A stretch of 64,000 bases of DNA from positions 19,284,001 to 19,348,000 of the forward strand of contig NC_087251.1 in assembly GCF_037042905.1 (NCBI RefSeq). Direction: 5' to 3'. Position numbers and translations under genes: made by a program. Positions 17,001 to 45,600 of the stretch are shown here, one piece after another (the first letter of the stretch is position 1; each line of letters begins with the position of its first letter). Under the pieces are notes generated by a model that was not told where the DNA came from, did no database searches, and was given only the letters and a program-made list of their open reading frames with translations. This DNA comes from Lytechinus pictus (lineage: Eukaryota).

Positions 17001-20000
17001 GGGAAAAGGGGAAGAAGAAGAACTATAACAAATAAATACTCTGCATTTCCAAACTTTGTATGGAATATGCAAATTATTATTTCTAACCTGCGAATGTCTT
17101 TGCATTTACGAAGTCAGCCTTGAAGGAATTGATGTCAGCAGCAGAAAAGCTTAACTTGAGTGAAACATTAGTTCCTGCTATCCAAGTAGCACACATCTCA
17201 TTCTTGTCACAAACCTTTTTAAACGAAAATTAATGGATGACGAAAAAATTAGCATGATGTATGTACAATTTGTCAACTTTTTCTTACCAAATTTGAATTG
17301 AATTAAAGACCTATACTGATGAATTAGGAGTAACCTACCAAGGTACAATAATTGAATTATTAAGGTATTCTTTAGCGTAATAATTCTTTCAGTAAAATAA
17401 AATTTGACATATAAGTACTTTCGTATCATTAAACTGCTGAATCTAGCTATCATCACCGTTAGTATTATGCACCCCAAACACCATCATCATCATCATAACC
17501 ACTACCACCATCATCGTCATCACTATTATCACCCTCTCCTAACTCATCGTCTGCTTTACTTTATAGTTCTCATCATGATTCACCCCATTATCATTATCAT
17601 ACTCTTGATCATTATCATTTTCATATTTGGTATTGAACTCACGGTGATGACGTATGTTCTGTTATCACTCCCCTCTAGCTTTGGTTTGCCCACACCGGTG
17701 AAGCTTGGTTCAGAGTTCTTCTCAGTGATGATCTCGAGTTCGCCGTCGGCTTTGACGACGGAGAGCTGGTAGTTGAGCGGGTAAGCGTCGACCGAGGTGA
17801 CACAGTTCTCGGTGGTAAATATAACCTGCGATAATAAATCAACATATGCTCGTTTTTATCGAGGGCCTTGAGTGATTATTCTTCTGATTGCTTTGTCTAC
17901 TTTTGCCTTGCTGCGGTTTTAAAACGTGCTTGTTGAATATTTATTTTTTTGACAATGATCACTGTCATAATAATGATTACATACATCACTAATACCACAT
18001 TCGGCAAGAGGCCTGTAATAATAAAGAGATACAATGAATATTTTAATAATTTTTCACCTGTATTGTTCAATGTATTACATGCACTAAGGTTTCCATTTTT
18101 AATATCATTTCCTTTATGATAAGAAACTCATAACTAGTAAAATATTTGATACACCACCTTAACAATAGAATATCTTTGTAAGAACAGAGATGTGCCGACA
18201 GAGGAGCACCCGTATGATTCTTATTCTAAATGAACAATATAACCAGTGTGGAAATTCACCCTGATAAACAGCTACTTTCCTCTAATATACAAACATTGAA
18301 AGCTAGTCATTCATGGCAATGATAACGTCTTGACTGACTGACCTCATCGAGTTCTTCATAACTTGGCACGGAAAATTCGCATGATGTCGGGCCTGAACGG
18401 ACTTCGACGTAGCTCTTTACCGTGCTGTACTGATCACCGATGTCAGTTACATTCAGTAAGAATGCATAGCTCGCGCCACGCTGGACAATCCCTGTGGTTT
18501 TTAGAAGAATGGTGGGAACGAAATTCAGTTTTAGCAAAGGTAATCGCTTGTTGAAGTTTTAATTTTCAAGCTTATTTACTTTTAAATCATAACATAAGAA
18601 AACAATCTTCACACAGTTAACACAATTTCAACCAAACAATACAAACACAGATATACTAATTAAAACGGTATCTTGTATGGTGTGCGGAAAAAATTAAACT
18701 TTGTACTTCTCATTAATTTTGTATAGTAAAGCTGAGGGAATGAAGAGAGCCAATAGTAGCGTACAGCTTGCATATAAAGTACTGTTTTTGTTTTCTCAAC
18801 GAGCCACCATAGCATTTTATAGCAGGAGTGGAAAATGGCGACCGGCATTAATGTTGAATGTAGTCATTTAAACATTTTGAATATCTATCAGAAGTCCATC
18901 ATGATTAAGGTATTGTAGTATTCTTCGTTGAGCATCAGTTTTAATGGAAGCATGCTGAACGCATCAGGAGCTTGTCGTGGCATTTATTCGAATCTTAACC
19001 GGCCGCCATAACCATGATGACAAAGAGAGATAGCGAGAAATTGTCCAAGATATGCCTACCTCTTTTACTATAAACACCAAATCGTCTTAAAATACAAATT
19101 TATCTTGGAAATACAGGTTATGACCCATTCCCGTAAAAAAAGAAGATGATGACACCTAAATAAATGAAGCTACTGTTAAAAGAATATCTAACCTTTATCA
19201 ATAGTGATGGTTGCAATGCTGAAACCATCACCCGCTTCAAGAAGCTGCACATCTCCAAGTAGGTTGGAAGAATCAGTCAGGTCGATGTACGAATACCCTG
19301 AAGAAAAAAAAACACAATTTCAGATAAATATTAAAAACTCGCTGTCTTTCGTAATATTCCTGCATTCCCTTTGCTGATCCACATTTACATGCGTGAAAAA
19401 CTGAATTACTTTAAAACACGTATCAACATATTTTTATATACATTCGTAAGTTCAAGGAAATACATCTCACTGTGTGTATTTGAGTTTTGTCAGACGTGTA
19501 TCAATCAGATATGATCATTTACGTCTGGGACCGACCTTTAACGTCACCATCCGAAATACGTGACCAGGGCTCGAACCTCTGCTTCAATTTGTAACTTCCT
19601 CACAGCTTGGATTACAGGCGCACGCCACAACGCCCAGTTTTGGCGTGCATCTTAGCACTTTTAATGAATCTTCTTGAAAGCATTTCATCAACAATTTTCG
19701 TCTAACAAGTTGTCAGATCTAACAAATTTATTTTCAACGATCTCGAAGCACAGATGTCTGACAATCACTGTGGTCATTGTTTAAAAAAAAACTTGTCGGA
19801 TAAATCATTCGACGAGTCCTTTCATTAAAAACACTCACCTAAATCAGAATGACTGATAGTTTTATGGGCCTATTTCATATTAATAATTTCATCTTCTTGT
19901 CTTGTAATGATTTTTTTGTAATATATATTCAAATGTATATATAAGAAATGAAAATATAATTCAAATATTTACCTGAAGTGGTATCCACAGTTTGGAATGA

Positions 20001-26000: not shown

Positions 26001-29000
26001 CTACATAAAAGTTTTTACGTTATTCTCATAGAATTCGACAATATGTTCTCAGTTGATTTTCTTTTTTTTTCAATTATGATTTGTTAACTTACGGTCATCT
26101 TCAGGTGAAACAAAGACCGAAGGAATGACATTGTAATCAGACAATGACATGAAGTCTGAGAATGAACCAGATGGAGCAGTGATCTCAAAGGTTTGTAGTC
26201 TTGGCACCTTGGTAACTAAAGCTTCGGTAGGACTGATGCTGTTGAAGCTGATATCTGACAAAGGTTGTAGGAAGAAGAAGTATTATCATATATTAAGCAA
26301 ATGGTATATTGATTGCGATTTTATCATTATTTACTTATATATTTATCTATTTATTTGTTTTATTACTTATTTATTTAATTATTCATTTATTAATTAATTT
26401 GTTAATTAATTAATTAATTTATTCATTTATTTATTGGGGTAAAGCCTGAAATTGTTTATATAAACATTAGTTAGGAAAATGATTCGTTATTACAATAACC
26501 ATACCAATACACAATTGTAAAAATAAATCCTTCCTCATCATTATCGTCACCCTCTCCCTGTGAATGGCGCCCGATCATTAAAAGCACACAAACTTACCTT
26601 CATATACATAGATACTCTGTCTGAATTCAGAGAGTGAGTCGCTGTTGCGCTTGATTGCCAGATCATATTCACCTGCATATACAAAGATAATCGTTAAAAG
26701 ATGAATCAAGATGTGAGCATGTGACGGTATCGTAATCTAAAATGCTAAACACGGCTGAAAAAACTTAAGAAGGAATGATAATGGTATTAAAATCAAGGGT
26801 TTTATTCGTTAACTTGTACAAAGTAATATCATTCCTACATTAAGTTTCCATTTAAGAAGCATTTAAGTGCACTATGTACATGATGTAATTATTTTAATTG
26901 CCTCTAATCAGCTGACAGTATGAATTATTATGCAAGTTTTAATGATGCATTTTTTCCACAAATACATACTGTCACTTTTTTTTTTGGGGGGGGGGGGGTT
27001 CGATCTTGGCTTATGTATGCACAGATCAGCAGACTCTATCAATCATATTATCAATAATCAATCGCTGAAGCTGCAAGATTCTTATCGATATAACTTACCT
27101 GCATCCAAGGCCGGGGTGGTACATTCAAGTTCAAAGTAGCTGATGAGATCGCCAATCTCTGCTTCGTATTGTTCACCGCTGTTGTCAATGAAGACACATG
27201 ATAGAGATGCATCGCTGCTGAACCCTGCTCCTACCACGTGGATCTGAAGAATAACGAAATTAAAAAAAACCCAGGAAACATGGTTCAGGAGCGGCGAATC
27301 CTTGATGTATGCCATTTTAAGCAAATATATTTGGGAATTACACATTTTCTAAAATTTTTTAATAGAACAACGTGTGTTCAACGGGCAATACATTATTTGC
27401 TAAAAACTAGTTTTAAGCGAAACGTCACGTTGGAATGTATTTAAGATTAAGTCCAATACAGAAAGGAAAGGATGGTCATATTGGTAAGTCAAAGGAAATT
27501 GAACCTTTATAAACGCACACAAAATATGTAAAGAGATCAAAACGTTTATTCTTCTTCTTCTTTAACTCTGGTATATCAGTTTTGAGTTGCGGTGTACCGC
27601 AAGGTTCTATATTGGGTCCATTGTTATTTCTGATTTATATCAATGATATTTGTTTGGTATCAAACACATTGAATTATATATTATTTGCTGATGACACAAG
27701 TGTTTTCCTATCACACCGTGATATTGATATCTTAGAAACACCATCAATATAATGTTGAACTTCCGAAACTATCTAAATGGTTTGGAAGTAATATGTTATC
27801 ACTGAATGTTAAAAAGACTAATTATATACACTTTAAAGGCAGGAAGTCATGTGCTGACCATGATTTAAGATTGAAACTTGACAATGCTTTGTTGGAAAGA
27901 AAGACGTCTACGAGGTTCCTTGGGGTCTACATCAATGATCAACTTAACTGGAATGATCACTTGAAACACATCAGTAAACCAATTTCTCGAAATATAGGTA
28001 TACTGTATAAAGTTAAGTACCTTGTACCTTATAAAATACTTTACATGTTGTACAATACTCTTATTCTACCTTATTTATCATATTGCAATATTCTTTGGGC
28101 AACATCAACGAGTGTCACAAACCCAATTCTTCTGTTGCAAAAGAAAGCAATTCGTATTTGTGCTGGAGTTGATTACCGTGATCATACGCGCCCTCTCTTT
28201 ATAAAGCTGCAATGTCTTACTGTTGATGATGTCCATTTTCTTCAAACTTCCCTTTTTATGATTCGATTTAATGCCAAAATGTTACCTACCTGCTTTTCCA
28301 CTATGTTTCAACAAAATAATACTATCCATACCTACCACACAAGACAAGCATCTAATATGCATTTGTATAACCCTCGCACGCTGTTGGCTCACAAATCTAT
28401 CAGACATTATGGACCTGATGTTTGGAATTCCCTACCTACTAGTACTAGGAATATATTATCAGTGCATTCCTTCAAAAGGGCGGGAAAACGCATACTTGTC
28501 TCTATTAAAGATGTAACTTTTTAGCAAGACACATTTTTGTTGTACTATACATCTTAAACTTAAAGATTGATATAATTTCAATAATTATTACGCCTCACAC
28601 ACTCCTTGTAAATATTTGTAAATAGTTGTGGCACATATAATTTGTTTTTTGTGCGTAATCATTAGTTTTTAATTTTTAGTATTCTTTTATATTTATGTAT
28701 GTATTTTATATATCCAAAGGTGTGACAACAGCTCAAGCATCTGCTTATGTTGTCATACCACTGCATGTCTGCAGCCTTGGTATAATCAGTTGTGTAAATG
28801 ATCATAATTATACATTATTATTATGTAAAATTTAATGTATTTAATGTTGTGATGGTCACACTATGTACATTGTCATGACATGCAGAAACGAATAAATAAA
28901 TAAATAAATAAAAATAAATAAAGGTGACAAGATTCACTAAAATGTTGGGCGTCCCACTTATTGAAACCTAATGGCGTTTCTGATTCAAACTGCTTTCAGG

Positions 29001-32000
29001 AATTAAACTTGATCTATGCAGTAATAAAATTTTAGACCGAAAGCCCAAGCTGACCCAATTTTATACTTTTTTTCAAATCAAGGGTAAATAGAGTGTATTG
29101 AGAACGAGAACAAAACATTTACTAAGTTCAAGATAAAGAATTCATCTTGAATCGTGCATCTTAACAATGCATTTACATCTATAGGGCTTATGTATACACA
29201 ATCAGGACGAACTCACCTTAGTCGCTTTGTTTGGTAGCACATTAGGAGTAATTTCTAACACACCAACACAATCTGAGCCGTCTCCGCCACAAGTCCCACA
29301 CGCATCATATTCCTCACCACTGTCATCAAAGAACAAATTCAACATTTAGTAGTTTGATCACGGGAATGAAAAAAAAAAAAAACGAAGCTCAGAGACAGCC
29401 TTTTGTCTCAGAGAATGAATACCAAATGTACAGAATTATAATTTATGGAAGATGGTATATTACAGACAAAATAAAAATGATTAATTTTGTCTAAATCTTT
29501 TTTTTTAAATATACATTTATGATACTAATATTCGATGGTGTGCTAGGAGCAAATAATGTATGTACCTGGCGGGAACCCCGTCGCAACCAGCACAAGATTG
29601 TTCGTCAGCACTTGGATCGCTATCACATTGACCGCACGCATTAATCCCTTCGTCGATTTCGAGTCCTGTGTTACCACCATAGCATTCACCGCAGTCATTT
29701 TCCTGAGCTCGAGGGAATCCTATGTAAAAAAATGAGATTTTGGATGAAATTATTTAACCTCTAAACTGGCTCCGTAAAAAGTTACATGCAGCAAATAAAT
29801 TTAATGTAATAATTCCCTGAAATGCACATTTCAATAAAGGGGGGGGGGGGGTCATAATGTCACTTACAGGTTTTTTTATATTAATTTATTTCATATTTTT
29901 ATCGGTGGGGGGGGGGGGGGTAGGCGGGGAAAACATCCCCTAAATGTACACCATGTAAGAAATCGGGCCCATTCACAAAGTATTCACATGAATGGTATAA
30001 CTTTGCCATTATGGTGCCATGGTAAAATTGCTCAGTAGCAAATCAAAATCAAGGTTTCCGTGGTAATCATCACATGCAATGGCAAAATTGTAAGTCTTTA
30101 TGAAACGGGATCCGTGTGATCATTTAGCATACCAAGACTATTATAAACTTGTGCAATAATTTACCTCAAGTTTGTAATCAAATCAGAGGTAGATAATTAA
30201 TTATTCATCCGATTAAAGACACAATTTATTATGATAGAAAAATAAACTTGACAAAAGGGAATATTAAATCTTGTTTATATAATGCTTGTCTTCAATGCTC
30301 ACAAGAATTTTTAAAGTAGTCGTGGGGTTAGGGGCAAAAGAGGGGACGGCAAAAACAAACAAAAAAATCGGGGCGTATAGCACAAAATCTAGAACAAAGC
30401 CCACTCTTTATAGTGATTGGGGTGCAGGAGTTATATGCGGGGAGCAAACGGTGACTAAGTGAAAAAAAAGTTTTGAGGGGTGAAAAAGGATCATCTGGTA
30501 CTTTTTACAACTTGAATTAGGAGGCTCATTATAGTAATTACTTTCTATTTACAAATTATTACAAGTTCAGTTTTCAAAATTCCAGGAAGGGAGGGGGGTG
30601 ACATCCCCCTTGCTATATGGCTACCGATTGCCCTTACATAAACCTTTCTTTAATGACGTAACATGAAAAAAGATAGGCTAGCCCCCAAAGTACCTGACTA
30701 TATCTAGGCTAAAATTAGACCGACCCCGGTCAGATTCATACCATCGCCTGCCTGGTACAGAATTGAAAATTGATTGTTCGATTTTTATCATTAACATGGA
30801 TACAAAGATTTTTTTCTTCCTAATGAAATGGATTGAATGCAGTGCAAATACACGATGAGAGAGCAGTATGCCGTGCATCGATAAGGCATTGTATTTGAAG
30901 AGCTACCCCTCACTACCTCGACAGCCGCACGACTCACCCAATACCCCCGCCCTAACCACCAAAAACTGGTCTCCATAAATTCTAAAACAAATCTGATGTT
31001 TGGAAAGGCTTAATCGTTATGTATCTCATGAAGGACATTAGTTTCGAATTTGTTGGCTTACATAAAGGTAGAAAGCATAATCGAAACAATGTTCATACTA
31101 CTATGTTTGTAGCTACGTAACCATAATTACCTAATACGACATTAAATTATAGCCTATGATGAATTTGCAAGATTTGAAGAAGCTAAAAGTTCGAAATATT
31201 CTACAAGCAGAACATTATAAATATATAAAAATGATACTCATTAAAGCTCTCTAAAATCTTGTTTATTAAGCTTCATCATAAACATATATCGTATCTCTTA
31301 TTGATTTGTTAATAATTAGAGTACCAAAATTTTAACATTTACCAGTCAGTGTCTTTAGTATGTAAACCTTGATAAAGATAAGTTAAAGTAAACTACTCGG
31401 GACACTACTTATCAAGGTGTATAATGAATTCCAATGATACTAATTATCGATTGTTTATTCCTTCACTATAACCCAGATACGCTTTCGTGTGAAGTTTAAA
31501 ACCAAGGTCTGATAACAAAAATGCTCATTATTGTGCGGGAAACCGCACGGAAGTTTTCCAAAATGTCCGACACAATACAAAATCAATTAACCAAGCGAGT
31601 CAACTTTTCACTCTGCATAATATGAAGATGGTTGGGTATGGTATAAACTGGGTTGTCTCGATATTGATTTCATTGACGTAGACTGGCTATAACTTCTTTG
31701 CATAAGAATGCTGCACCTAGAATGTTTGGTGGTAGTAGTTACCAACAAAGTTTCGCTTTGAAGTACTGAATCGATTTCTGACAACAGACCATAAAAAAAT
31801 CAATATGATATCGGACGTGGTCTACCACAGACCACCATTTTGTTTTACATTTTCCGTTTTATGCAACCTATATTACCATAAGCTTGCTTGACATTCTTTA
31901 AAAAGTAGGATATAACCCTTCAACAATTACTGTTTGGTGCCTTATATTGTAACCCCCTCCCGCATATGATTACTCAATCATTGAGTTGATTTTGCCTAAT

Positions 32001-35000
32001 TCCAATGAAAGTAGGTGTAAAAATATTCTTAAAAAACATCAAAGAAGTCACATTTCACGAGCTGACATTTGAGAATGATTGTTAATGTCTGAGAATTTGC
32101 AAAGACGAAGGAAGATTTGCAAAACATACAACGAACTATATATATCTTAATAAGTTTGTAATTGCCTAAACTAATTTTCTAGCATTTTCATTTTATTTTT
32201 ATTTTTAGGAATATTTGGTATTATTTACCAACCTGCCCAAATAAAATATATTTAATGAGCCGAATTCCGATAGCCGAAGCCAAAAAGTCTCAAAATGAAA
32301 TGAAGATAAACAAAAATTAATATCGGATAGATATGGGCCAAACTTCCATTATTCCCATTTTGAAGATGAAAAATTATTTAACTAAACTTGAAGATGAAAG
32401 AATCATGATCAGAAATCCTCTCTTTCAGCTAACCTTAAATGTTCTTTTTATGTATCATTCATAATATCGTCCTGATATTTCTTGATTTAACTTAGTTGTA
32501 AATCATTTTGATTATAGTATGATAGTATTCGTTTTCACTCAAAATCAGCCCTCCCTCCCTAATCCATGCACGGACACCAGCAAATAAGTCGAAACTGGTC
32601 AAACTCAGTCAAAATTATTAATAAAATTAACGTTAAAACTCTTCAATTGAATAAAAATGAATCTACCAGAATTAAGTCAATATAAACAAAAATATAATTC
32701 TTGATTCGTTAACTAGAATGGAATGAAATTTAAAGTTAGAGCCCACTTTGCGGTTAGTCATCGTATTTCGTAATCCGTTATATATTTTCTGTAATAAAAC
32801 GTCTGTAATGCACTCATTTAAGATGAGATGGACTAAGTGAAAAAAATAAACGAGTAAGATGTTCTTAGCTGTAAAGATTTTTCTATAATGCATTAATGGG
32901 GTAAAATGTTGGGACCTTGTGTGGTTTTATTTTCAGCGAATTTGGTTGGTATACATCCCCTCATTAGATGACTAAAACTGAATAAATGGGTTTTAAGAAC
33001 ACCTCTTTCATTTCGATACTCTTTACTACCACAATCCTATTTAAATATCCGATTCGCGTTCTTGTGTCACCAATTCCGTATTTCTCCCAAGGATTTGCGT
33101 AGTTATTCATGTCTTACAGTTATTTGTCTCCCCATTAAAAGAACATTTTCAATTAAAAAAAAAATGTATATGTTATTATTGACTACCTAGATTATGCACA
33201 TATATATTCTAAAATTCATAAATCAACCAAGCTATTTAACAAACGAAAGCTTTCAAAGTATTGCGTGGTTTCAATATTTGTTATGATCTCGTTTTTTTGA
33301 AGACATGACGGATCAATATTTGGACTCTGTCACTCATGTCACTCAAAGCCTTGCGACTGATCCGATCGTACAGTTGAATTGTGCGATTGGTAGCACATGA
33401 CGAACATTTCCATCAGAGAATTAATGAGAAATTGGTTATACGATTAATCCTAACACTTTGTATAGCATCATCGAGATGCTTTTAATTGGCTACTCCGGGC
33501 TCAAAATAGTTATTTCTAAATAAATAAAGTAAAAAATCATCAAACAAAACGCTGCAATTTTCATCAAAATCTGATAGGAAAATATTAAGTAATTGAATTG
33601 TAAAGATTACGAGAATTTTGTGAAAACAATTATATGCACGCCTTCATGAATATGCACTAGGTCGTCTGATGATGTCATGTCCCCACTTTCCTTTATTACG
33701 TTATTACATGAAATTATACTTATTTCACATGTTCATGGATGTTCCATGTAAAAAGTTACAGCAATGAATATTCAATGCATTAGATCAGTTTTCAAACAAT
33801 TTTCTTGGTGGTCTTAGTGGTCAAAATTTAAATAAATCTTACTTCATAAAACAAAATACAAAACAATCAGTGAGAGTATGACATCATCAGCTTGCTCATT
33901 GCATATTCATGAATGCATGCATAGAACTGTTTCACCGAAATAATGCAATGCTTTAAAATGTCATAGCTATGTTATTTGTCAGATTTTTTGATGAAATTTT
34001 CAGTGCTTTTTTTTTCATCTGTTCAAATCATTTGATTTTCAACCTTGAGCACCTATTTAAATATCTTGCTACTGAGATATATAACGAGATGTCATGGGGG
34101 AAGGGGAGGGGGGGGGGTAAATGACCAGCGGCGTATCGTGGGTCATGGCATGGGGGGGGGGGCACGAGTTACTTATTGAGAGCTCAGTAGCCAACACAGT
34201 GACCTGGAAAATATACATTTTAAGGACTCTTTGTAGGAATTCATGAAGAGCATACTTATCTAAGGACCCTACTGATCAAATGATACGATTGCCAAGCGCG
34301 AGGTGAAAATATTTGATATTCAGATCTGAAAATAGTATATTCTAAGTACCAGCTTTTTAAAAATAATATCTCACTAAATATGCAATGCAATTTTTGTATG
34401 TCTTTTGTTTGTTTAAAGGTCAAGTCCACCCCAGAAAAATGTTGATTTGAATAAACAGAGAAAAATCAAACAAACATAACACTGAAAATGTCATCAAAAT
34501 CGGATGTAAAATAAGAAAGTTATGACATTTTAAAGTTTTGCTTATTTTCACAAAACAGTGATATGCATAATTCAGTGACATGCAAATTAGACAGTCAATG
34601 ATGTCTCTCACTCACTATTTCTTTTGTTTTTTATTGTTTGAATTATACAATACTTCATTTGTTTATATATTTGACAATAAGGACAAATTTGATTGAATCA
34701 TAGTATTAAACAATGCTCATTCCACACTTGACAATGAGGAGAAAAATATGATATTCCATATTTCACATAATAAAATACAAAAGAAATAGTGAGTGGATGA
34801 CGTCATCAGTCTCCTCATTTGCATATAACTGTTTTGTGAAATTAAGCAAACATTTAAAATGTAATAACTTTCTTATTTTACATCCGATTTTGATAAAGTT
34901 TTCAGTGTTATGCTTGTTGGATTTTTCTGTTTTTATTCAAGTCAACTTTTTTGGGGTGGATTTGTCCTTTTTGACATAACACATGACACGTGAACTCCGA

Positions 35001-38000
35001 GCCTCCCCGTAATTACGCCACTACACATGATCATTCGGAGGTTTAAATTGTACAATATCCTGCAGTGGCGTACAGATGGGGGTCTAAAAAAAAAAGAGAA
35101 AGAAAAGAAAAGACAGAAGGGAAAAAGTGATATTTTCTGAATATCATGTAAAAATCTATCAGAAAATTGGGTTTTAGTAATAAATTTATTGAATTTTTTG
35201 CTCGCTCGCTTTGCCCGCTCGTGAACTATTTATGAAGTTTTCGTGATACGCCATATCTAGCCCCTTCACATTTTATTTGGCTTTAATAGTACGCCACTGA
35301 TTTCCGGGTAGGGCTGTTGGGTTGCGAATCAGAATTTATTTCAGGGACCACAGAATCGGGGAATGAGGGGCCACCTATTTTTTCAGTAAAAATGTACAAA
35401 AACATCAATAATATCTTATTTCTTTTGGCTCTGTCTCTCACTTTTAAAACCTTTCCGCAGCCCCTGTATTTCCCTCAACAATTTACATGTTATCATAATT
35501 GCATTATTATATCAAACGATACGCCTTTGGTGACAACAAATATTGAGAGAGATTTGGATGTTTCATCACTGTTTTGTAAAGTATCTCTACCTCATCCCCT
35601 GATGCCATGTTACGGAAATTATTTCACATTATAGTAAAACAACAAATTACTCTTCGTCCGAAATCTTTGATGGACGTTTATTGGAAGGAGTTCGCAACAA
35701 ATGAGTCAAAACTACCGCTTATGAATGGGAATAAAACTCAAAAGTTTTTTTCAAAGGAAAATAGAAACGTAAAGATAAACAGATGGGTGGAACAATATCG
35801 GACAAACATAAGATGTAATCACTACACAAGTTAAAGAGGAATTTCAAATTGGTCTAACAGAGGTATCGTCGCTGTGATGTAGAAGCTAGGGACAATCCTG
35901 CAATTACTTTTTCTTCTGCGGAGTCCATTATTTTTTTTCACTTACAATGGCGCCAGCTTGCAAGTGAATCAGATTCCGAATGAATATGACACGGAATTAT
36001 GTGGTATCAGCTGAAAAAAATATACTAATTTCTGAGTTACATTCACTCCGAACTGACGCCATTACTAGTCGACTTCCAGACACAAGAATATTATTCTCCG
36101 CCAAATTAAAGTGACGAACAAACCTACCTGGTGTTACACAAGTAGAGGAGCAGTCCATGTATTTGCTGCCACCGGTGTAGTTGACTCGAGAATACGGCTC
36201 GCAGAAATCACAGGTATCCTCCACCCAGTCTCCATCGCATACACCACGGCAATCGAGCCGGTCATCATTGGCGTCCTCATCCAGGCCAGAGTCACCACCT
36301 ACGTGATTGTGGAGGGAACGGGGAGCGGGGAGGGGGGGGGGGTAATATTTATATGCAAGTATAATTGCGAAGCATTATGCAAATGCCATTCAGGCAATCA
36401 TATTAAAGATGATGATCATGATGATGAAGAAGAAGAAGAAGAAGATGATGATGATGAAAAAGTTCTTAATATCACAGATATCTCAATATGCTCCGGTCTT
36501 AATATCTCAGAGGGCATATAGAGTAAGGATATCAATAGAGTTTTGGTTCAGAATAATGTAAAGATTAGGATTAGGGTTTATTTATCTTATATAGTTTTGG
36601 TTGGCTTAACGTGCAAACTTTCCATCGGAGCTATTGGCGCCGGAGCAAATTTCATGGAACCGCGATGTAATCTAAGTGAAGATATTATTATTATTACCAT
36701 TATTATCACTATTATTATTATCATTATTATTATTATTATCATCATCATCACTATCACCATCATCATTAATACTATCATTATTAATATTGTTATTATCATC
36801 ATCATCATATCGCCTGTCTTTAATGCAATTTCATCGATGAATCATTTTATCCCATTAAACCATGCTGGTATAATTAGGCATTTTTAACATTTCTCCATAA
36901 ATAAAACAAGTGGAACGCCTCTGGCAGTCTCGCCTGCATTACGCAATTCGAAATAGCAGCAGTGCTGCCTCTGATAACAGCTAATTAATAATTATTCACA
37001 GAAGAAAACACTAATATGATAATAAAATATTATGTCCAATCACCCAAAATGACCTTTGACCATGATCATGTGACCTAAGACATGTGGAAAACAATCATTC
37101 ATACTTGATTACCCTTCTGTCGATGTTTCATGAGCTAGAGCCATAAACTTTCTAAGTTATGACGCCAATCCAACACAGCCAGATGTCATTAACATTTAAA
37201 TTACCTTTGATCTTTGCCATGTTCCTAAAACGCGCACAGGGTATTCAGGGATACATTGCTGCTCTTAAGTCCAAGTTTTATGAACTAGATCCATAAACTT
37301 TTAAAAGTCTGATAAAAATTCCTCAAATACCCCAACATAGCTAAAGTTCGTTGACCCTAAGTGACCTTTGACCTCGGTCATGTGACCTGAAACTCGCACA
37401 TGATATTCAGGGATACACAGTTGCTCTTATGTCCAAGTTTCATGAACTAGATGCATTAATTCCTTTAAAAAACCCAACATGGCCAAAGTTCGTTGACCTT
37501 AAGTGACTTTTGACCTAAATCATGTGATCTGAAACTCAGGCAGGATCTTCAGTGATGCACTACTACCCTTATGTCTAAGTTTTATGAACTAGGTCCATAT
37601 ACTTTCGAAGTTATGACAACATATCAAAAACTTAACCTTGGTTTAGATTTCGATATTGATTCCCCCAACAAGGTCGAAGTTCATTGACCCTAAATGACAC
37701 TTGACCTTGGTTGTGTGACCTGAAACTAAGACAGGATGTTAAGTAATACTTGATTACCCATATGTCCAAGTTTCATGAACTAAGTCCATATACTTTCTAA
37801 GTAATGATGACATTTCAAAAACTTAACCTTGGTTGAGATTTCAATGTTGACGACGCCACCGTCGCCGTCGGAAAAGCGGCGCCTATATAGTCTCGCTCTG
37901 CTATGCAGGCGAGACAATAAACGAAGGTCTACCTACCAACACATTCACCGCATTTATCATAGAAAGCAGTAGCATTACAGGAACCAGAGCAATCCCATGT

Positions 38001-41000
38001 TTCTTTGTAGTCCTTTGCCTGTTTACATAGACCACAACGGTCAGCGCCGAAGTCATCGTCTCTGTTCGTCCTTCCGCCAACGCATTCGAAGCAGTAGTTG
38101 ATGTAAGCGTCCCCGTCGCATTCACCAGCGCAATCGGGCTTGGCATCACCGTTGCAGACACCGGCACAGTCTTCACGAGCGGGTCCATTGCATTCACCGG
38201 CACAATCGACGATTCCCTTGCATTCCTCTGTAAACATAAACACAATCAAACTTTCATTATCATATGGAAACATTTTATTCTCAATGTGTAAAAGCTCTAC
38301 AACCAAGGGATAAAACTGAAGGAAAACACAATTGCATGAACAAAATTTAATCATTCATTAATAAAGAACACTCTTTTTGATGAATTTACAAAACATCTAA
38401 ACTCATTCAACATGCCTTAACATCAATTTGATTAGCCCTTCGTGATATTCAGAGCAAATAATTGTTTTAATTCAAGTTATTTTTGCTTCTAAAATCTTTT
38501 TAGACATCAATCATGATTAGAGGTCAGATAAGGATCCTAGACTTAAAACAACAAAAACCGACCAACTATTACTAACCAACAACTTCTTGGGTAAAGGCTT
38601 GTACAACAGATAGGCACATATCGCTCCTGTCTTCAAATCCAATTATGTTCAAAATGTCATCGATGTCCATCCTGAAAGGAGCAGATGATGACCACCATCC
38701 CCATGAGTCCCAATATGAATACCAACTGCTTTCTTCTCCTTCAAAGAGGTCCTCGGATGTGATGAGCTCCTCCATGGTGTCAACGAAACGCTCGCAGCGG
38801 TCTACATTCTCCAAAAGCCCGATCACCTCACCAGCCATACGTTCCATGAACTCTTCAAGATCATCTCTACCGTCGACCATGCTGTCACAGACCCTATCCA
38901 AACTACCCATACCGGTGATGACGCCCAAAACATCGTCCATTACATCAAGAGTCTCTTGTGTGATGACTCGTGGACTATCCCTGAAGTAATGAAAATCCTC
39001 CGCTGATGAATCCCAGTACCACCACTGACCGTAATTGTCCCACCATTGCAATTCTTCAACATAGTCCCGAACCTCCTCAATCTGATCGCAAAACGCCAAC
39101 CCATATTCATCAATTACCCAGAGGCCAACATCAACCATGACACTCCTAACAACGTCTAGAATGCTTTGGTCTGATATCAGTACTTCTTTAATTACACCAC
39201 CCACTTCAACACAGACACCTTGTGGATCTCCTTCTTCAATAACACTGGTATCAAATTCAAAGGTATCAGTGATAAATTCAAAAAATTTATCTAAGTCGAA
39301 CGGACGAAGGGACAGAGGATAGTCTGGTCCATAATAGACTGGAACAATGATTTCTTCACATTCTGATATCAAATCTTGTTGTTCAGAACCGCGCCTGCTG
39401 AAAATCCTACAAAGAGACTCGACTGGGGACATACCGTGGACACGGGTCATGTATTGTTCCATGACATCACAAAATGTTTCACTCATCTCCGGAAAGTTGT
39501 CTGCGTTGTACATTTTAGCTATCATCTTGACAGCCGTTTCGAATGGAATGAGGGGTAGGATCATTCCCGACTCAAAGGCCTGTTCACCAAGATAACCCAA
39601 ATAATCCTCCACGTAACTGTACTCGCTTACATCTGGGAGATTTACAGCACCGACTCTGATCTTATTTGCTGAAAAGGTCTCCACAACGAAAGAGCATACA
39701 TCAGAAGCACTTGAGTATCCTGTCATTTTTTCAAGAGCTTCACTCGTGAGGATTTCAGCATTTATGATTTCGTTGACAAAGTTTCTGCAAGAACGGAGGT
39801 TCGTCGTCATGTCTAGGACGCTGTCCACCATGTTGTCTAGAAAATCATATAGATCTTCTTGGCTGATGTCTGGGTCTCCCGATAAAGAGGCCATCTGTTG
39901 ACACATTTGTTCCTCACTGTTCCAGTCACCAAGATGTCGGAAGATGACCGAGAGGACGTTATCAAGGGAGTCAATTTCAGGGATTTTGTACCACCAGAGC
40001 GTGCTGGATTCGTCGAAAGAGTATGAGACCTCTGAAGACCAGCTAGAAGACCAAGATGATGGCCAAAAATGTCTCCAATCATAGTATCTCCAACAAGTAG
40101 TGCTGTAAAGCCAGGCGCTACTGTAGTGGGCAATAGCTGAAATCAGACCATTGGCCTTTTCTTTTATTCCATCATTATCCAATGAATATAGGTTGGTGTA
40201 GGAATTGCACAATTCATATGGGCCATTGTCGCTGATATTCAATGCGTAAGGAATCGTATCAAATAAACCTTCTAGGAATATATCTTCAAGGTAGTCGTCC
40301 CAATCCTCCCAATCCTCCCAGTCATCGTAATCATCTTCGTGAGAGACTTGGTAGCAGAGTTTGAGGAATTCATAAAAATTTTCATCATCCAAAGCCTGGC
40401 ACATTTCTGTCGCAACTCTATCCATTAACGCATCTGGAACAGTCTCGCAGAATATGAGAGCACCTTCTCGTAAATTATCGGCCTGGTATATTCGACCTGC
40501 AAGCTGGATCCAAATTTCGATTGGAACCCTTTCTATGACGTATGGATCAATTGGATTCCATTCACCTTCATAACTGGATCCCCACCACCATGAAGAGCTT
40601 GACCACCACCAAGAAGATGACGACCACGAATATGACGATGATGACCATGGAAAGGACGATGAAGACAGCGATGAAGATGACCATGAAAAGGACGATGAAG
40701 ACGGCGATGAAGATGACCATGAAAAGGAGGATGACGGAGATGAAGATGACCATGAAGAGGAGGATGACGGAGATGAAGATGACCATGAAGAGGATGACGG
40801 AGATGAAGATGACCATGAAGAGGATGACGGAGATGAAGATGACCATGAAGAGGATGACGGAGATGAAGATGACCATGAAGAGGATGACGGAGATGAAGAT
40901 GACCATGAAGAGGATGACGGAGATGAAGATGACCATGAAGAGGAGGATGACGGAGATGAAGATGACCATGAAGAGGAGAATGACGGAGATGAAGATGACC

Positions 41001-42606
41001 ATGAAGAGGAATACGATAGAGATGAAGAAGACCAGGAGGACAGCGAACTCCAAGATGAAGAAGACCATGATGAAGACCAGCTATAGGAAGATGAAGGGAA
41101 TGAAGACCATGAATATGAACTTTCCTCTGGGAACGATGAAGGAAATTCAATATCAAAATCGGCATCTTCGTCGAAAGAATCAATAATTGACGTACAGAAC
41201 TCAGATTGAGTGATGTTGATGAAGCTGAATGTCATGTTCATCAAGTCTGGGGCCTCTTCCACAAGATTTTCTAGCATGCTTTCACAGAATGATGCCGAAG
41301 AAACAAGTTCAAATAGATTCGATTTCATTGTATTTAATATGCCATCAAGTGCATCGCGATCCCCATTCTTTTCATCAAGAGCTGCTTGGACGATATTATC
41401 ACAATAATCATCTTTGTTTGAATAGTCACCGAGAGTCATCATCACATTGGATACAAAATCATGAATGGAAAAATCGGGGAAATACCAGCTACTGCCGCTA
41501 AAAGAGTCTATGTAAGAGCTTTCCGACCATGAGCTGCTGAATCCAGAACCCCTTCGACATTTGTTAATCTCATCGGAGAGGACGAGTATGATGAAATCAT
41601 AAGCGAATTCATCCATTATGTCGCTAACGCTGCTTGAATCATACTGCATGGTACCGGTCACTCCACGACAAACAGAATGGTCGCTATTCGGATCAACAAT
41701 GCCAAGGGCATCCGTGAACTGATCGAAGATAAAGTCCAATTCTCCACCTCCATCATCCCAGTCTGATTCCCACCACCAGTCGTCAGATCCGGACCACCAT
41801 TCGGAATACTCCCATTCTGAATCCCAATCCCACCAAGATGACCAGGAACTCCACCAGGACCAGGATGACCAGGACGGTGAACTCCAGGATGAATCCGACC
41901 AAGACCAAGAGGAAGATGACCATGATGACGAGGACCAAGACGATGAAGACCATGATTCCGAGGACCAAGACGAAGAAGACCATGATGACGAGGACCAAGA
42001 CGAAGATGACCATGATGACGAGGACCAAGACGATGAAGACCATGATGACGAGGACGAAGACCCTTGAGAGGACACGGCAGATGAAGATCCACCTCTTCTA
42101 TAGCGGCCTTCATCTTCAATATCGAAATCTCCCTCAGCTAGTCCTATGATACCTTCACATACCCCATTGAAATCGGCATCCTGCGGATCATCAACGAGAG
42201 TCTCACAAAGGAATGTTGTCATCTCTTCTGGAAGGAACTCTCCAAGAAATTCGAAATTGTCGCACATTATTCCGATGGATTCCGATATGGTGTCGGCATT
42301 GATGGCCTGGCCGAGTGCCTGTATCACTTCATGAATATCCACAGGGAAGTCGAACCAGCTTCCTTCGGACGAATACCGCCACCATGACGATCCATACCAG
42401 GATGAATCCCACCACCATGAAGATCCACCATATGATGATCCCCACCACCAAGAAGAATCATACGACGATCCCCACCACGAATCCCATGAAGATCCCCACC
42501 ATGACGAATCCCACCCATATGAAGAATCACCCCAATACCACGAACTGGAATCCGCCTTTACAGTAGCTGCTCCAAGGAGCAGGACTAGTAGAAACAGGCA
42601 CCGCAT
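7605..42606 (-). CDS. Whole gene model: 28-exon, ~2945-aa single-pass REJ/GAIN-GPS (polycystin-1/REJ family-like) membrane protein
   Basis: Hand-spliced exons sum to 8838 nt (2945 aa + stop); all 27 introns are GT..AG with matching phases. Order: signal peptide, novel repeats, Cys-rich repeats, IPT-like x2, REJ-like, GAIN/GPS, TM, Pro-rich tail. Confidence 0.85.
8959..9122 (-). CDS. REJ/GPS gene exon 27: single transmembrane helix
   Basis: cag acceptor, gtaagt donor; [28 protein letters not shown] followed by basic KINKR. Confidence 0.9.
9992..10236. mobile_element. Short MITE (CAGGGGTGGATCCAGG-type ends)
   Basis: caggggtggatccagg at 9992 and inverted cctggatccgggcctg ending 10236; no clear TSD. 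Confidence 0.5.
10307..10330 (-). CDS. REJ/GPS gene exon 26: 24-nt microexon (TDELEGLT)
   Basis: Long polypyrimidine tract + tag acceptor, gtaagt donor, phase 1-1. Confidence 0.7.
10912..12838. mobile_element. Non-autonomous TIR element (CGGCCGTA-rich arms) with a nested G/C-tract repeat at ~11254..12440
   Basis: taataccttggtcacatttgct at 10912 and its inverse agcaaatgtgaccaaggtatta ending 12838; repeated tacggcggccgta motifs in both arms; TA/TWA target ambiguous. Confidence 0.75.
13108..13356 (-). CDS. REJ/GPS gene exon 25: GPS motif and S/T/P stalk
   Basis: [16 protein letters not shown]...[11 protein letters not shown]; cag/gtgagt sites, phase 1-1. Confidence 0.92.
14034..14197 (-). CDS. 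REJ/GPS gene exon 24 (GAIN region)
   Basis: aag acceptor, gtaagt donor, phase 2-1; [10 protein letters not shown]...ELSNPST. Confidence 0.85.
14724..14909 (-). CDS. REJ/GPS gene exon 23
   Basis: cag/gtacgt, phase 2-2; [17 protein letters not shown]...ELNS. Confidence 0.85.
15353..15509 (-). CDS. REJ/GPS gene exon 22
   Basis: cag/gtatgt, phase 1-2; [14 protein letters not shown]...MLNKI. Confidence 0.85.
15838..15960 (+). mobile_element. tRNA-derived SINE head
   Basis: GGTGCCGTGGCCGAGTGGTCTAAGGC (A box) and GGGTTTGATCCCC (B box); cloverleaf incomplete. Confidence 0.65.
16179..16409 (-). CDS. REJ/GPS gene exon 21 (helical region, RRRR furin-like site)
   Basis: cag/gtaaga, phase 1-1; [29 protein letters not shown]...LADQ. 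Confidence 0.85.
16865..17022 (+). repeat. (GAA/GGA)n polypurine microsatellite
   Basis: Seen directly. Confidence 0.85.
17088..17214 (-). CDS. REJ/GPS gene exon 20
   Basis: aag acceptor, gttaga donor, phase 0-1; [14 protein letters not shown]...KTFA; needed to reconcile phases of exons 19 and 21. Confidence 0.8.
17643..17825 (-). CDS. REJ/GPS gene exon 19 (REJ-like)
   Basis: cag/gtgagt, phase 0-0; [21 protein letters not shown]...YVIT. Confidence 0.87.
18343..18491 (-). CDS. REJ/GPS gene exon 18 (REJ-like)
   Basis: cag/gtcagt, phase 1-0; [16 protein letters not shown]...GPTSCEF. Confidence 0.87.
19193..19297 (-). CDS. REJ/GPS gene exon 17
   Basis: cag/gttaga, phase 1-1; [14 protein letters not shown]...ITIDK. 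Confidence 0.85.
19471..19638 (-). mobile_element. Candidate SINE with 7SL-RNA (Alu-domain)-like head
   Basis: 5' ACTGGGCGTTGTGGCGTGCGCCTGTAATCCAAGCT resembles the SRP RNA 5' end; B box GGTTCGAGCCC; SINE core-like TTTCGGATGGTGACGTTAAAGGTCGGTCCC; (CA)n tail. Confidence 0.7.
19973..20099 (-). CDS. REJ/GPS gene exon 16
   Basis: tag/gtaaat, phase 0-1; [14 protein letters not shown]...VDTTS. Confidence 0.85.
20118..20295 (-). mobile_element. Degenerate tRNA-derived SINE
   Basis: B-box-like GCTCGAAACCC, LINE-like 3' end and (ATT)n tail. Confidence 0.5.
20728..20940 (-). CDS. REJ/GPS gene exon 15 (REJ-like)
   Basis: cag/gtatat, phase 0-0; TTDNSACW...[14 protein letters not shown]...GNPPK. Confidence 0.88.
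21479..21711 (-). CDS. REJ/GPS gene exon 14 (REJ-like)
   Basis: cag/gtgagg, phase 1-0; [16 protein letters not shown] is a typical REJ/PKD motif. Confidence 0.9.
22275..22426 (-). CDS. REJ/GPS gene exon 13
   Basis: cag/gtgaga, phase 2-1; [13 protein letters not shown]...GSLP. Confidence 0.87.
22610..22875 (+). mobile_element. Degenerate tRNA-derived SINE
   Basis: GGTCCAGTGG A box, GGGTTTGAAGTCCC B box, core-like ccatcgacccag, (ATT)n tail. Confidence 0.55.
23232..23445 (-). CDS. REJ/GPS gene exon 12 (REJ-like)
   Basis: tag/gtaagt, phase 1-2; [22 protein letters not shown]. Confidence 0.9.
23740..24012 (-). CDS. REJ/GPS gene exon 11
   Basis: cag/gtaagg, phase 1-1; [38 protein letters not shown]. 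Confidence 0.9.
24291..24461 (-). CDS. REJ/GPS gene exon 10
   Basis: aag/gtgagt, phase 1-1; AFLWVEF...LGKGAWCIW. Confidence 0.85.
25099..25296 (-). CDS. REJ/GPS gene exon 9
   Basis: cag/gtaggc, phase 1-1; ETVWMSAG...SINGQD...AQFSST. Confidence 0.87.
26093..26254 (-). CDS. REJ/GPS gene exon 8 (second IPT/TIG-like start)
   Basis: cag/gtaagt, phase 1-1; [13 protein letters not shown]. Confidence 0.87.
26598..26672 (-). CDS. REJ/GPS gene exon 7
   Basis: cag/gtaagt, phase 1-1; [24 protein letters not shown]. Confidence 0.85.
27099..27243 (-). CDS. REJ/GPS gene exon 6 (IPT/TIG-like)
   Basis: cag/gtaagt, phase 0-1; [18 protein letters not shown] pattern. Confidence 0.9.
27565..28922 (+). mobile_element. 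5'-truncated, frameshifted non-LTR retrotransposon (CR1/L2 group) in intron 5
   Basis: RT motifs [20 protein letters not shown] and LFADDT from 27588; frameshift near 27750; ORF 27793..28524 (LNVKKT, FLGVYI, YCNILW); 3'UTR and (AATA)n tail at ~28890..28922. Confidence 0.93.
29217..29319 (-). CDS. REJ/GPS gene exon 5
   Basis: cag/gtgagt, phase 2-0; [29 protein letters not shown]. Confidence 0.88.
29566..29719 (-). CDS. REJ/GPS gene exon 4 (Cys-rich)
   Basis: tag/gtacat, phase 1-2; [12 protein letters not shown]...CAGCDGVPA. Confidence 0.88.
33490..34060. mobile_element. Older palindromic MITE related to the 34417 family
   Basis: aattttcatcaaaatctga (~33556) and inverted ttgatgaaattttcagtg (~33988); shared tgatgtca/tgacatca internal motifs. 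Confidence 0.5.
34126..35023. mobile_element. CAGTGGCGTA-ended MITE hosting a nested element
   Basis: cagcggcgta at 34126 and tacgccacta ending 35023. Confidence 0.5.
34417..34968. mobile_element. Palindromic MITE with TTAA|AGG end (Kolobok-like)
   Basis: ~150-bp arms: aggtcaagtccacccc..catcaaaatcggatgtaaaataagaaagttat versus ataactttcttattttacatccgattttgat..ggggtggatttgtcct. Confidence 0.8.
35063..35299. mobile_element. hAT-like MITE
   Basis: 11-bp TIR cagtggcgtac / gtacgccactg; degenerate 8-bp flanks atatcctg / atttccgg. Confidence 0.65.
36128..36298 (-). CDS. REJ/GPS gene exon 3 (Cys-rich)
   Basis: tag/gtaggt, phase 1-1; [37 protein letters not shown]. Confidence 0.88.
36682..36810 (+). 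repeat. (ATT/ATC)n microsatellite
   Basis: Seen directly. Confidence 0.85.
36904..37917 (-). mobile_element. Helentron-associated (HINE/DINE-1-like) non-autonomous element with about five internal 140-190-bp tandem units
   Basis: Subterminal inverted repeats gtctcgcctgcat (36927) / atgcaggcgagac (37903), terminal hairpin, T-rich insertion site, repeated tgacctttgacc..tgtccaagtttcatgaactag units; second copy at 47667. Confidence 0.8.
37937..38227 (-). CDS. REJ/GPS gene exon 2 (DCAGxCxG Cys-rich repeats)
   Basis: cag/gtaggt, phase 1-1; [32 protein letters not shown]. Confidence 0.9.
38577..42606 (-). CDS. REJ/GPS gene exon 1 (4030 nt): signal peptide, Ser/Trp repeats, three 8-Cys acidic modules
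   Basis: ATG in accatcATG context; [18 protein letters not shown] signal peptide; G|gttagt donor after 38577, phase 1, matching exon 2. Confidence 0.9.
40570..41130 (-). repeat. Coding minisatellite (30/33-bp unit encoding [10 protein letters not shown])
   Basis: Six identical aggatgacggagatgaagatgaccatgaag units at 40761..40940, flanked by diverged 33-bp variants. Confidence 0.95.
41760..42090 (-). repeat. Coding tandem repeat (15/30-bp unit encoding SSSSW)
   Basis: gaccatgatgacgaggaccaagacgaNgaN units at ~41900..42060. Confidence 0.9.
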
Positions 42607-45600
42607 GATGGTGCCGATTATAAAAAAATTAATCTTGCATCCACAAAGAAAGGGACATAATGTTTCTCTACATCCAAACTAAAAGTACACGAAGACGTCC
42701 GTCTACATGGACTGTAATGGCGTATAATAGATTAGTATTGCAAAGAGAGTGCAGTTCGTTCCCTCTCCAGATCGCCAATCAATATCTGATGTTTCGTTGT
42801 GCTACACTTTATCGAAAAGAGGAAAGAGTTGGATATTGATTAAGACAACGAGATCAATATTTGGGGGGGCTGTGGACTTATGACGTGCATTCAGTTGCAG
42901 AATAAAAGTTTTTGTTGTGTTAAACAGGTGCGTCACAGTATAAATGGAGAGATGGAATGAAATCGAAGCTATCAATGATGTTACAACTGGGACCGAAGAT
43001 TTTGTCCTAGACTAGGTGATCTTGTGTATTAAAACGTGGATGGAAAAGTTGATATCAATACTCCTAGTTGGTTTTATAATTTGAGAAAAATCTAATATTA
43101 CTTTCACGTATTACTGATAAACATTGAACAACGAGAGAAATCCATTCAATCTGCCGTGTTATCCAAGCATTCCTTCGGTCCGGAGTTTAGTCTCTCTTTT
43201 CAAATGGAAACCCAACCTTGGTCGTGAGAGGGGGAAATAAAGAAAAATAAAATGTCGAAAGTTTGAAAGAAATTGGGCAATATAGTAAAGTAAGTAAGGA
43301 CTGTTTTAAAAACGAGATCAATAAGACGATGTAAAATGCAAATTTGCAACTTAGTAAGCAAAGTAGGATAAGTGGTAGGGACAAATTTCCCATAGGCTGT
43401 GTACTCAATTATCAGAGAATTGTGGTTTTCTCATTAGTACGTATTCCCCTTGGGCAATAGAAATTGAAATTGAAATTGAAAAGGTTTTATTGAAATTATT
43501 GCACTTTGCAGCCAAAAGGCTGAATTGCGTACAATTTACAGGCATATATACATAGAGTGTACAGATTTAAAAACATCAAACTTGAAATCATGACGAAAAT
43601 ATAATGCAAGTATATAGTCGAAATATAACACAGATATCTTATTGTTCTGTATCCTCATGAAAAAAAATATATATAATTAGAATTTAACGTTTAAAAACTC
43701 CACATTTTAGCCATTTTGTGTTTTGGGGCAAATGAAAAAAATATTTTTTAGCTTAAATCATTAGTACATTAATTCAAAGTCTCCAAAGTTGTAATAATTA
43801 CAATTTCTTACAACTTGAGGAATCATAACTTTCTTATCGTTGTCCATTTTTCATACATTCACCTATCTTCTTGTCTGGTTTTCTTTTTCCTCAAAGGATA
43901 ACTTTTTTTATTTGGGTAGGATTTCCCTTTAACTCTTCGACCTAATTATTATTTTGCTTAAATCTTTTGACATCCCGGTACATGAGTTCTTGGCATTGTT
44001 TTATATATAGGTTTTTCTCTTGGCCTAGTTCCTCTTCTAAACTATCATTTAAAATCCATGGGGGCTGCGTGGATTTTAACGGAAAGTTATAAACTTTATC
44101 TTATTTAACCTGTTTCTTAAAATAATCACTAGCTTCTGAATTCAATTGATTAGAAGAATGAAATGAAATTTTTAATGACAATAATAATAATATTTGAAAT
44201 ATAGCGCATAATAGTCAAATGTATTATAGCATAATAGTCATGCGCTGTACAAAATATCAATTTACTAAATTATACATTAAACCTAATTCAAACTATCAAT
44301 TAAACCTAAACCTCAAATATTTCATACATATAAGAACAAATATAAAAATAACATAATAAATGAAAACTAATAATATCTAACAACATACTATATTGAACAT
44401 TATTAACATTATTTTGAAAATAATTAGGTCTTGAGGACAGATTTAAATATGGAAAATGTAGTGCCAAATAGATTTATGAAAGATGTAGGTCTGAATTTTA
44501 ATGATAAGGCAACATAACATAGTGCTTTACGCTTCCATGCTGGATTAAACAAATAGTACAAATTAAGTTTAACTTCAGTTTACGTAATATTGTTTTTTTA
44601 ATCAGTGAGGAAACAGTTGGATATTGTATACAACCATGACTTGGCTCACTGCGATTACTAATCTTCAAAACTCAATTTTCTTTAAAGCATCCAATCGTTG
44701 CAAAAAAGCTGAAAAATAAAATCCCGAGAAAATTAACACGCAACACGAGGGGCCTGGCAACTATTTTTGAAGAGGGGGCGCTGGTTTGGAAAAAAATGAA
44801 AGGAAAAAAAAAGGTTTCGCTCCAAAAAAAAGACGAAATTCTTTGGGTCAATTTTCTGCAATTTAGCGTGCCAACCTGATTTCCAGGGATTGCTGCTTAT
44901 GGGGTACAAATTGGGTACAACATACGCAGCATCCCGCTTTCCAGGGCCATGGCAATAACAGATGCTGCCGACCCCCCCCCCCCCCAAAAAAAAAAAAAAA
45001 AAAAAAAAAAAACGGCTAAACTGCTCTTCTTCAATAAAAAAAATCCATAGAGCAAATCCATATTTCTTTTAATTTTATTATCATTGACAGAAGACTTAAT
45101 CTCTCATAAGCGTATTCGTAATTAATGAACAGTTACAGGGATTAGGCACAATAAAAAAGAGTTCATCTTTTGACCGATGGTAGACTTTTATAGAAAATGA
45201 TAGACATAACTGGAATTAAACATATTCCGAGGAGCCCTTGACAGGGAAATATGTTCTGTTTTATTAATTTGTTTTATATTTTCTTTGTTTATATTATATC
45301 AACAGACAGGAGAGGATTCTGAAAGTTAATGAAATGATACTGTAGGGGGCGCTATTTAGAATAGATAAAAGCGGCCCTTGAATGTAAAAAAATATTTAAA
45401 AAAGGAGGGGAGATTTCGAAAGAAAATATACTTGGCATTGTAAATCAGAAAAGATATAGTTGGAAACAAAAAGGACACTGGAAAAAAGTGATAAAAATGA
45501 GGCATCGGAAAAAAACATTGTTTGAAAATACTGGCCACACTAATTTAGTTTTGATAAGAAATCAGGCACTTGGAGAGGAGTACGCTACATTTGTGAGACC

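Follow-up and report, generated by a model that had tools for sequence, protein, structure and literature searches.

The Gene at the Locus

The window, a stretch of 64,000 nucleotides of the Lytechinus pictus genome, carries on its minus strand LOC129264802, the orthologue of sea urchin REJ9. Its parts, in window coordinates and with the evidence in brackets, are:

38577..42777, minus: exon 1, at least this long, with 5' UTR, signal peptide, three modules and a phase-1 donor at its end (contigs, splice joint)
38575..42678, minus: ORF holding all the sequence blocks quoted in the earlier note, Met at 42606, 1368 codons (ORF reading)
42553..42606, minus: predicted signal peptide, aa 1-18 (hydrophobic stretch after Met; cleavage point placed by eye)
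42355..42552, minus: low-complexity N-terminus rich in Ser/Trp/Gly/Tyr, 38% S, 28% W (composition)
41173..42348, minus: module 1, aa 87-478, 8 Cys, net charge -57 (profile limits)
42094..42105, minus: furin consensus RYRR, aa 168-171, in the C3-C4 loop of module 1 (motif; putative cleavage)
41746..42090, minus: Ser/Trp-rich insert in module 1, aa 173-287, matching SpREJ9 Ser173-Ser284 as given in PMC1934368
40561..41121, minus: Ser-rich linker between modules 1 and 2, aa 496-682, 72% S, matching SpREJ9 Ser528-Ser694 of the same source
39673..40536, minus: module 2, aa 691-978, 8 Cys, net charge -42 (profile limits)
38593..39558, minus: module 3, aa 1017-1338, 8 Cys, net charge -51, predicted all-helical (profile limits; AlphaFold2)
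29217..38227, minus: DCxGxC cysteine-rich repeats in four exons, 37935-38227, 36127-36296, 29566-29718 and 29217-29319 (spliced joints, exon map)
23231..27246, minus: likely Ig-like beta domains, IPT/TIG- and PKD-like (exon map; weak Pfam matches in relatives)
16378..22413, minus: REJ domain in many exons, aa 2001-2436 of P0025 (PF02010, E 4.5e-84)
16333..16344, minus: second furin consensus RRRR, aa 2448-2451, just behind REJ (motif; putative cleavage)
13108..13356, minus: GPS exon with an intact HL|T autoproteolysis motif, His2732 at 13177 (PF01825, E 6.5e-10)
8959..9122, minus: exon with a single predicted transmembrane (TM) helix (exon map)
7608..7994, minus: Pro-rich cytoplasmic tail with three [LP]PxY motifs (exon map)

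From the Met at 42606 the frame opens on the predicted signal peptide and runs for 1343 residues to the phase-1 splice donor at 38577, and over these 1343 aa it is 100% identical to the N-terminus of P0025, the 2945-aa NCBI record of LOC129264802, which is labelled 'uncharacterized'. Contigs of runs X1 and X15 pass unspliced through 38577-40754 and 40981-41941 and continue to 42728-42777, apart from a gap at the Ser repeat, which bears out the view of the earlier note that all copies share one exon; in both, the joint from 38577 to 38227 is a canonical intron and the first five exons are canonically spliced. X1 and X2 are presumed to be RNA and the kind of X15 is not stated; contigs of all three are spliced. 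In two RNA runs of raw reads, of which about 6% was sampled, the exons are almost uncovered.

Downstream of exon 1, the DCxGxC exons have no Pfam match in the two exons scanned, and a TIG match comes from a relative, P0028 (E 0.0009). The REJ exons also match PF02010 in the window itself, and the GPS stands ahead of the single hydrophobic helix. Bacterial T9SS-type proteins match the region with the DCxGxC repeats (window 29217-38227, minus), as do oomycete REJ-GPS proteins. Elsewhere in the window, a large C2H2 zinc-finger exon at 60392-62656 (minus) resembles a BCL11 homologue, a single ORF at 1487-2569 (minus) has ankyrin repeats by Pfam, and a fragment at 27736-28521 (plus) within a REJ9 intron, with no Pfam match, resembles a non-LTR reverse transcriptase.

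The 2007 description gives SpREJ9 of Strongylocentrotus purpuratus as a protein of 2965 aa with one TM, a REJ domain, a GPS and Ser tracts at Ser173-Ser284 and Ser528-Ser694, and states that neither REJ8 nor REJ9 has a known domain upstream of REJ (PMC1934368). Orthology is judged here by the published length, TM count, Ser tracts and primers. The L. pictus protein agrees with SpREJ9 in length, TM, REJ and GPS; its Ser tracts coincide with those of SpREJ9; and both published SpREJ9 primers map on P0025 at 6/7 residues each, at the published spacing of 350 bp. The published REJ8 primers (PMC1934368) match the REJ8 record P0036 at 8/8 and 7/7 residues and P0025 at only 4/8 and 4/7. Because length, the single TM, Ser tracts and primer sites with their 350 bp spacing agree, the gene is REJ9, orthologous to SpREJ9 rather than SpREJ8. 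REJ9 transcripts are highest in the pluteus in two other urchins, and the available portions of these reports give no function (PMC1934368, PMC13672419).

The Triple Repeat in Exon 1

Exon 1 encodes three copies of an acidic module of about 275 residues with exactly eight cysteines each: the ORF has exactly 24 cysteines outside the signal peptide (and one within it), eight per copy, in blocks A, B and C of three, two and three. Once Ser/Trp-rich windows are taken out, local alignment of copies 1 and 2 scores 119 (z 14.5; best of 1000 shuffles 73) and of copies 2 and 3 scores 121 (z 14.4; best shuffle 64), both at 26-28% identity. Copies 1 and 3 alone align weakly (score 67, z 4.3; best shuffle 80), not clearly above chance, and their relation holds by transitivity via copy 2 and by the family profile. 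The three tandem copies that had been aligned by eye, with their quoted blocks in this one minus-strand ORF and eight conserved cysteines apiece, therefore stand as a significant internal repeat.

The repeat is a domain for which searches of Pfam, NCBIfam and PDB sequences found no match, as its description as an unrecognised module anticipated. Exon 1 matches no Pfam family at E<=0.1, and 9 single modules searched at E<=10 give only two chance matches (E 0.097 and 0.34); NCBIfam on 6 proteins yields one chance match (E 0.13), and PDB sequence searches find no match (best E 0.86, 0.32 and 0.2). Two queries of the ESM Atlas yield no usable match, a result that carries no weight.

Range and History of the Module Family

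A search of 1.84 billion representative sequences with modules 2-3 returned 11 proteins, extended by iteration to 51 modules, and a second search, using the conserved region that follows the modules, returned 25 proteins, 22 of them new. Eleven of these 22, the window's own record included, bear the module by a profile built before they were fetched; the others are a Ptychodera paralogue with a Ser tract only, two REJ-GPS proteins of oomycetes, seven proteins that are bacterial or unnamed, and one more without a name. Reversed-sequence controls for the profile reach E 0.2 at best. Among named organisms, the module is carried by Lytechinus, Strongylocentrotus (REJ8), Diadema, Apostichopus, Holothuria, Acanthaster, Patiria, Amphiura, Anneissia, Antedon and Ptychodera, which we take to represent all five echinoderm classes and the hemichordates; in these word-limited or single-sequence searches, the range found is Ambulacraria.

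Cysteines C1 to C8 are kept in 92, 94, 96, 94, 96, 96, 96 and 96 of 96 modules, counts that run over related sequences and so are not independent events. The median spacing over 84 modules is C-x18-C-x14-C-x64-C-x36-C-x57-C-x34-C-x29-C and no spacing falls below 10; as the earlier note had proposed, inserts sit at block borders, with C3-C4 spanning 34-244 and C5-C6 29-139 residues vs 34-41 for C4-C5 and 10-19 for C2-C3. Net charge is negative in each of the 84 (-7 to -57), and full-length proteins hold 2-6 complete copies. Besides the cysteines, only 8 columns reach 55% conservation (51 modules), and with so few invariant positions no shared binding site is evident. Strict pairing of the cysteines fits poorly with the loss of Cys 4 alone in two of the 84 modules.

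A quick tree gathers all last modules in a single group (21 rows, SH-aLRT 89) and unites second-last modules of the REJ9 type from different classes (10 rows, support 94), so the array is older than the split of these classes, in agreement with the ancient triplication proposed earlier; module 3 carries the last-module signature [YF]G..[YH]P. The middle modules of REJ8 are recent, near-identical duplications in the same tree. The L. pictus REJ8 orthologue has five modules in one 5-kb exon (C5:22323725-22328821, minus), and the S. purpuratus REJ8 record P0036 has six, three of them nearly identical. In Ptychodera flava, P0028 (a truncated record) has modules and P0029 has a 700-residue Ser-rich tract instead, so the receptor can exist without the module. 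P0012 has an inserted Kazal domain that separates the last module from the DCxGxC repeats. No stand-alone single-module protein, which the earlier note proposed to search for, came to light: P0001, P0005, P0006, P0007, P0010 and P0011 all stop a little beyond the conserved end of the exon and resemble fragments of a first exon.

Furin and GPS Motifs

The furin consensus R-x-[KR]-R is found in 10/16 first modules (10/15 without the truncated P0028) vs 0/68-69 other REJ modules, where shuffling predicts 0.4 and 1.2, respectively. Nine of the ten have it in the C3-C4 loop and one in C5-C6. Outside the REJ genes it occurs in 5/12 modules, always after Cys 3, so that 14/15 motif-bearing modules carry it in the same C3-C4 loop; it is present in every module fetched from two gene clusters on contig C21 and absent from five complete first modules and from all four SRCR-gene modules. 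The sole R-x-[KR]-R of exon 1 in the window lies inside module 1, and the inter-module linkers of 26 proteins contain none. A second site follows REJ, at aa 2448 in L. pictus and in 14/14 other records that reach past REJ, 10-21 residues beyond the Pfam REJ boundary in the 8 proteins for which the boundary was computed. The GPS motif HL[TS] is intact in 14/14 proteins examined. By general furin and GPS chemistry, cutting would be expected at these motifs.

Nematode polyprotein allergens (ABA-1 type) are likewise tandem helical units with basic convertase sites, but there the sites separate released units, whereas the REJ9 site is inside module 1, none lies between modules, and the units are tethered to the receptor.

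Module Exons in Other Genes

A search of the L. pictus genome with a distant module, followed by further searches, finds loci outside REJ8/9 on contigs C8, C9, C13, C19 and C21; as products of single-protein searches, these loci are a lower bound. Among 3879 open frames of the fetched stretches, 21 match the module profile at E<0.01, and reversed frames reach 2.1 at best. All 12 modules outside REJ9/8 keep the eight cysteines.

The clearest case is on contig C9, where a gene that combines TIL repeats with two modules and numerous SRCR exons (C9:16269851-16278469) yields single contigs of X1 and X2 in which module-SRCR-module-SRCR-SRCR-SRCR are joined. Four of its five joints, at introns flanking the modules and first SRCRs, are GT-AG, and the fifth has four extra letters; both module exons (996 and 1167 nt) are phase 1-1 (2/2), with TIL exons upstream of and between them. 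A second similar TIL/module/SRCR gene lies about 60 kb off (C9:16204460-16217032), and on contig C8 one module exon precedes at least 11 SRCR-like exons (C8:33002295-33021272, minus). Multi-SRCR architecture with phase 1-1 exons is ordinary for the sea urchin group B SRCR/DMBT1-like mosaic proteins (PF00530), among which the C9 and C8 genes differ by carrying a REJ9-type module as an added phase 1-1 exon; no literature on SRCR genes with this module was found.

Other associations are seen by adjacency. At C13:4603725, a single module with five arginines in its C3-C4 loop is followed by an EGF exon, and a 96% identical copy 130 kb away (C13:4471646) is broken by stops and a frame change. The modules on contig C21 are followed by an exon with a weak likeness to SEA (E 0.017) and by one that is TM-like; they form two clusters of two-module genes with near-equal scores (C21:7160100-7215163, plus, and 8963968-9022819, minus), either a recent segmental duplication or an assembly duplicate. 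On contig C19, at least three loci have intron-split modules followed by DCxGxC exons, and are possibly further REJ8/9-like genes. On both C19 and C21, the module is predicted to be interrupted by an intron that falls between C6 and C7.

Two trees put the non-REJ copies inside the last-module group, next to the last module of REJ8 from echinoids (support 99 and 95). No donor gene for the REJ9 exon was found, predicted introns interrupt the module in other genes, and the trees place the copies beside REJ8, so REJ8/9 look like the source. These comparisons suggest that the module was exported from REJ8 into other genes, although an AU test does not reject REJ last modules as a clade without the non-REJ copies (p 0.087; 36/96 rows). 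The earlier proposal that the exon was acquired as a unit holds in that single modules do travel as phase 1-1 exons into SRCR genes; the absence of a donor among the genes found, the predicted intron within the module and the position of the non-REJ copies in the trees speak against acquisition of the REJ9 exon itself.

Symmetric phase 1-1 exons (both in the spliced C9 gene, with predicted sites elsewhere mostly phase 1) and several architectures, REJ-GPS and SRCR by splicing and EGF and SEA-like/TM by adjacency alone, make a mobile extracellular binding module likely. It could instead be an inert, rigid acidic spacer or calcium scaffold without a ligand, its copy number setting the reach or charge of the ectodomain, for instance in outer matrix or mineralising tissue, which we consider unlikely. 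The acidity of every one of 84 modules, the range of two to six copies per protein, the recent duplications in REJ8, the plain Ser-rich tract in its place in P0029 and the scarcity of conserved non-Cys residues would suit such a spacer; yet a spacer would have no need for single copies to move into SRCR genes and next to EGF exons, for module types tied to position to be kept from class to class, or for a furin motif to recur in one loop. We favor a binding module.

Predicted Fold and the Comparison With Saposins

AlphaFold2 models module 3 from 24 aligned sequences with helices only (pLDDT 80.9, pTM 0.70; 77.6-80.9 over five models), consistent with the helical module foreseen in the earlier note; a single-sequence run (pLDDT 43) was not folded and was set aside. 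Foldseek of this model against the PDB, a check that the note proposed, gives 0 matches at E<=0.001 (best E 1.9). VIA-align over 48,161 chains finds nothing at Z>=8; its best match has Z 6.0 (rmsd 3.2 over 52 aligned positions, residues 6-57), and nearly every row covers residues 1-57 only, so that blocks B-C are barely probed. A repeat comparison over 111 chains reaches Z 3.6 at best. No saposin stands among the 50 listed structural neighbours, a result of searches dominated by residues 1-57 that leaves room for saposins and does not establish a new fold.

The module was also called loosely saposin-like, a likeness that its cysteines and profiles do not sustain. Saposin-like proteins (SapB_2, PF03489) are, as the module is predicted to be, helical, cysteine-conserved and extracellular or luminal, with a similar helix-loop-Cys-helix turn. 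They differ in their pattern C-x2-C...C...C...C-x5-C, six cysteines in about 80 aa, present in saposin repeats of the L. pictus genome itself; the REJ9 module has eight in about 275 aa (against about 76), no C-x2-C and no significant profile match. SapB has no match in 9 modules at E<=10 in Pfam; hhalign of blocks A, B and C against a two-sequence saposin profile gives 30, 14 and 21%, and with further comparisons to L. pictus saposin repeats the range is 13-30% overall, and 0.2% in another. Cysteine pattern and profiles both speak against membership in the saposin family, and a saposin-like subfold is possible.

A helical cavity could nonetheless hold a lipid or other hydrophobic ligand, the module working like saposins or nematode polyprotein allergens while belonging to neither, a function that we think quite improbable. 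The all-helical model and its amphipathic periodicity would agree with it, as would a motif helix-G[YF]xS-xxx-hC-helix that profile comparison finds repeated in blocks B and C (94.6% for the C1 vs C2 halves, 80% for B vs C, and lower when columns are shuffled, a weak control for helices) and that is reminiscent of the saposin helix 3-4 turn. The missing C-x2-C, the low saposin comparisons and a furin motif within rather than between modules count against it, and the acidic surface would disfavor anionic membranes at seawater pH. The module is a new family, possibly of new fold, among lineage-restricted shuffled extracellular modules.

Proposed Role

The gene's identity, the conserved repeat, the splice joints that place the module in REJ9 and in an SRCR gene, and the cleavage motifs are established; the reading built on them is one that we find about evenly balanced for and against. 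In REJ9, the modules would be an uncatalogued, disulfide-locked binding domain at the tip of a surface protein that is cut, and in part shed, in the embryo and larva; in SRCR proteins, the module would be accessory to binding. The REJ9 modules would cap a stalk built of REJ, Ig-like domains and DCxGxC repeats. One furin cut would fall within module 1 and a second directly after REJ, and the GPS site would cleave itself. The two furin cuts would free a module-bearing piece of about 2,280 residues, to be either shed or retained, with no peptide bond holding it, at the surface or in the outer matrix of the embryo and larva. Block A has an odd number of cysteines, three: were all eight of a module bonded, one bond would have to link block A to blocks B-C, and cutting in the C3-C4 loop would leave two chains still joined as a unit.

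The cut might itself be the function. In a furin-armed switch, cleavage in the C3-C4 loop would free or loosen block A and unmask a site, or the loop would be a breakable joint like the cleaved SEA domain. The confinement of the motif in REJ proteins to the outermost module, its place in one loop in nearly all carriers and the treatment of residues 1-57 as a small bundle of their own in structural alignments speak for such a switch, to which we attach little credence: if all cysteines pair, their odd number in block A means that a covalent bond would tether it, and most modules lack a furin site.

Under the preferred reading as a binding domain, the partner is most likely extracellular (a protein, glycan or microbial surface), by analogy with the lectin, EGF or WSC domains that fill the same slot in other REJ proteins and with the series of modules and SRCRs; the strong negative charge suggests a calcium-bridged or cationic partner. 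A bolder version, tentative and doubtful to us, is that the module has a new fold and is a mobile recognition domain of echinoderms and hemichordates, born in REJ8/9, matured by furin as a disulfide-tethered two-chain unit, and exported as a single exon into scavenger-receptor and mucin-like genes.

Significance

The module fills a region of REJ8 and REJ9 that was left blank in 2007 (PMC1934368), whose accessible part describes neither the repeat nor its cysteines or furin sites in SpREJ9 and SpREJ8. The genes were already known or catalogued; the domain, its range, its shuffling into SRCR genes or its furin pattern is described nowhere in the openly accessible literature searched, mostly by listings, and gene identity, furin sites and module mobility go beyond the first reading of the DNA.

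The module is a defined, expressible unit with a profile able to annotate genes now called 'uncharacterised', and a solved structure could be a new fold. From the two furin motifs, both conserved, follows a predicted processing scheme for single-pass REJ proteins that can be put to the test. Exon shuffling links the polycystin-like REJ family to the expanded SRCR repertoire of sea urchins, and, if the bolder version above is correct, the exported module would add an unrecognised class of innate or adhesive binding domain to these sea urchin genes.
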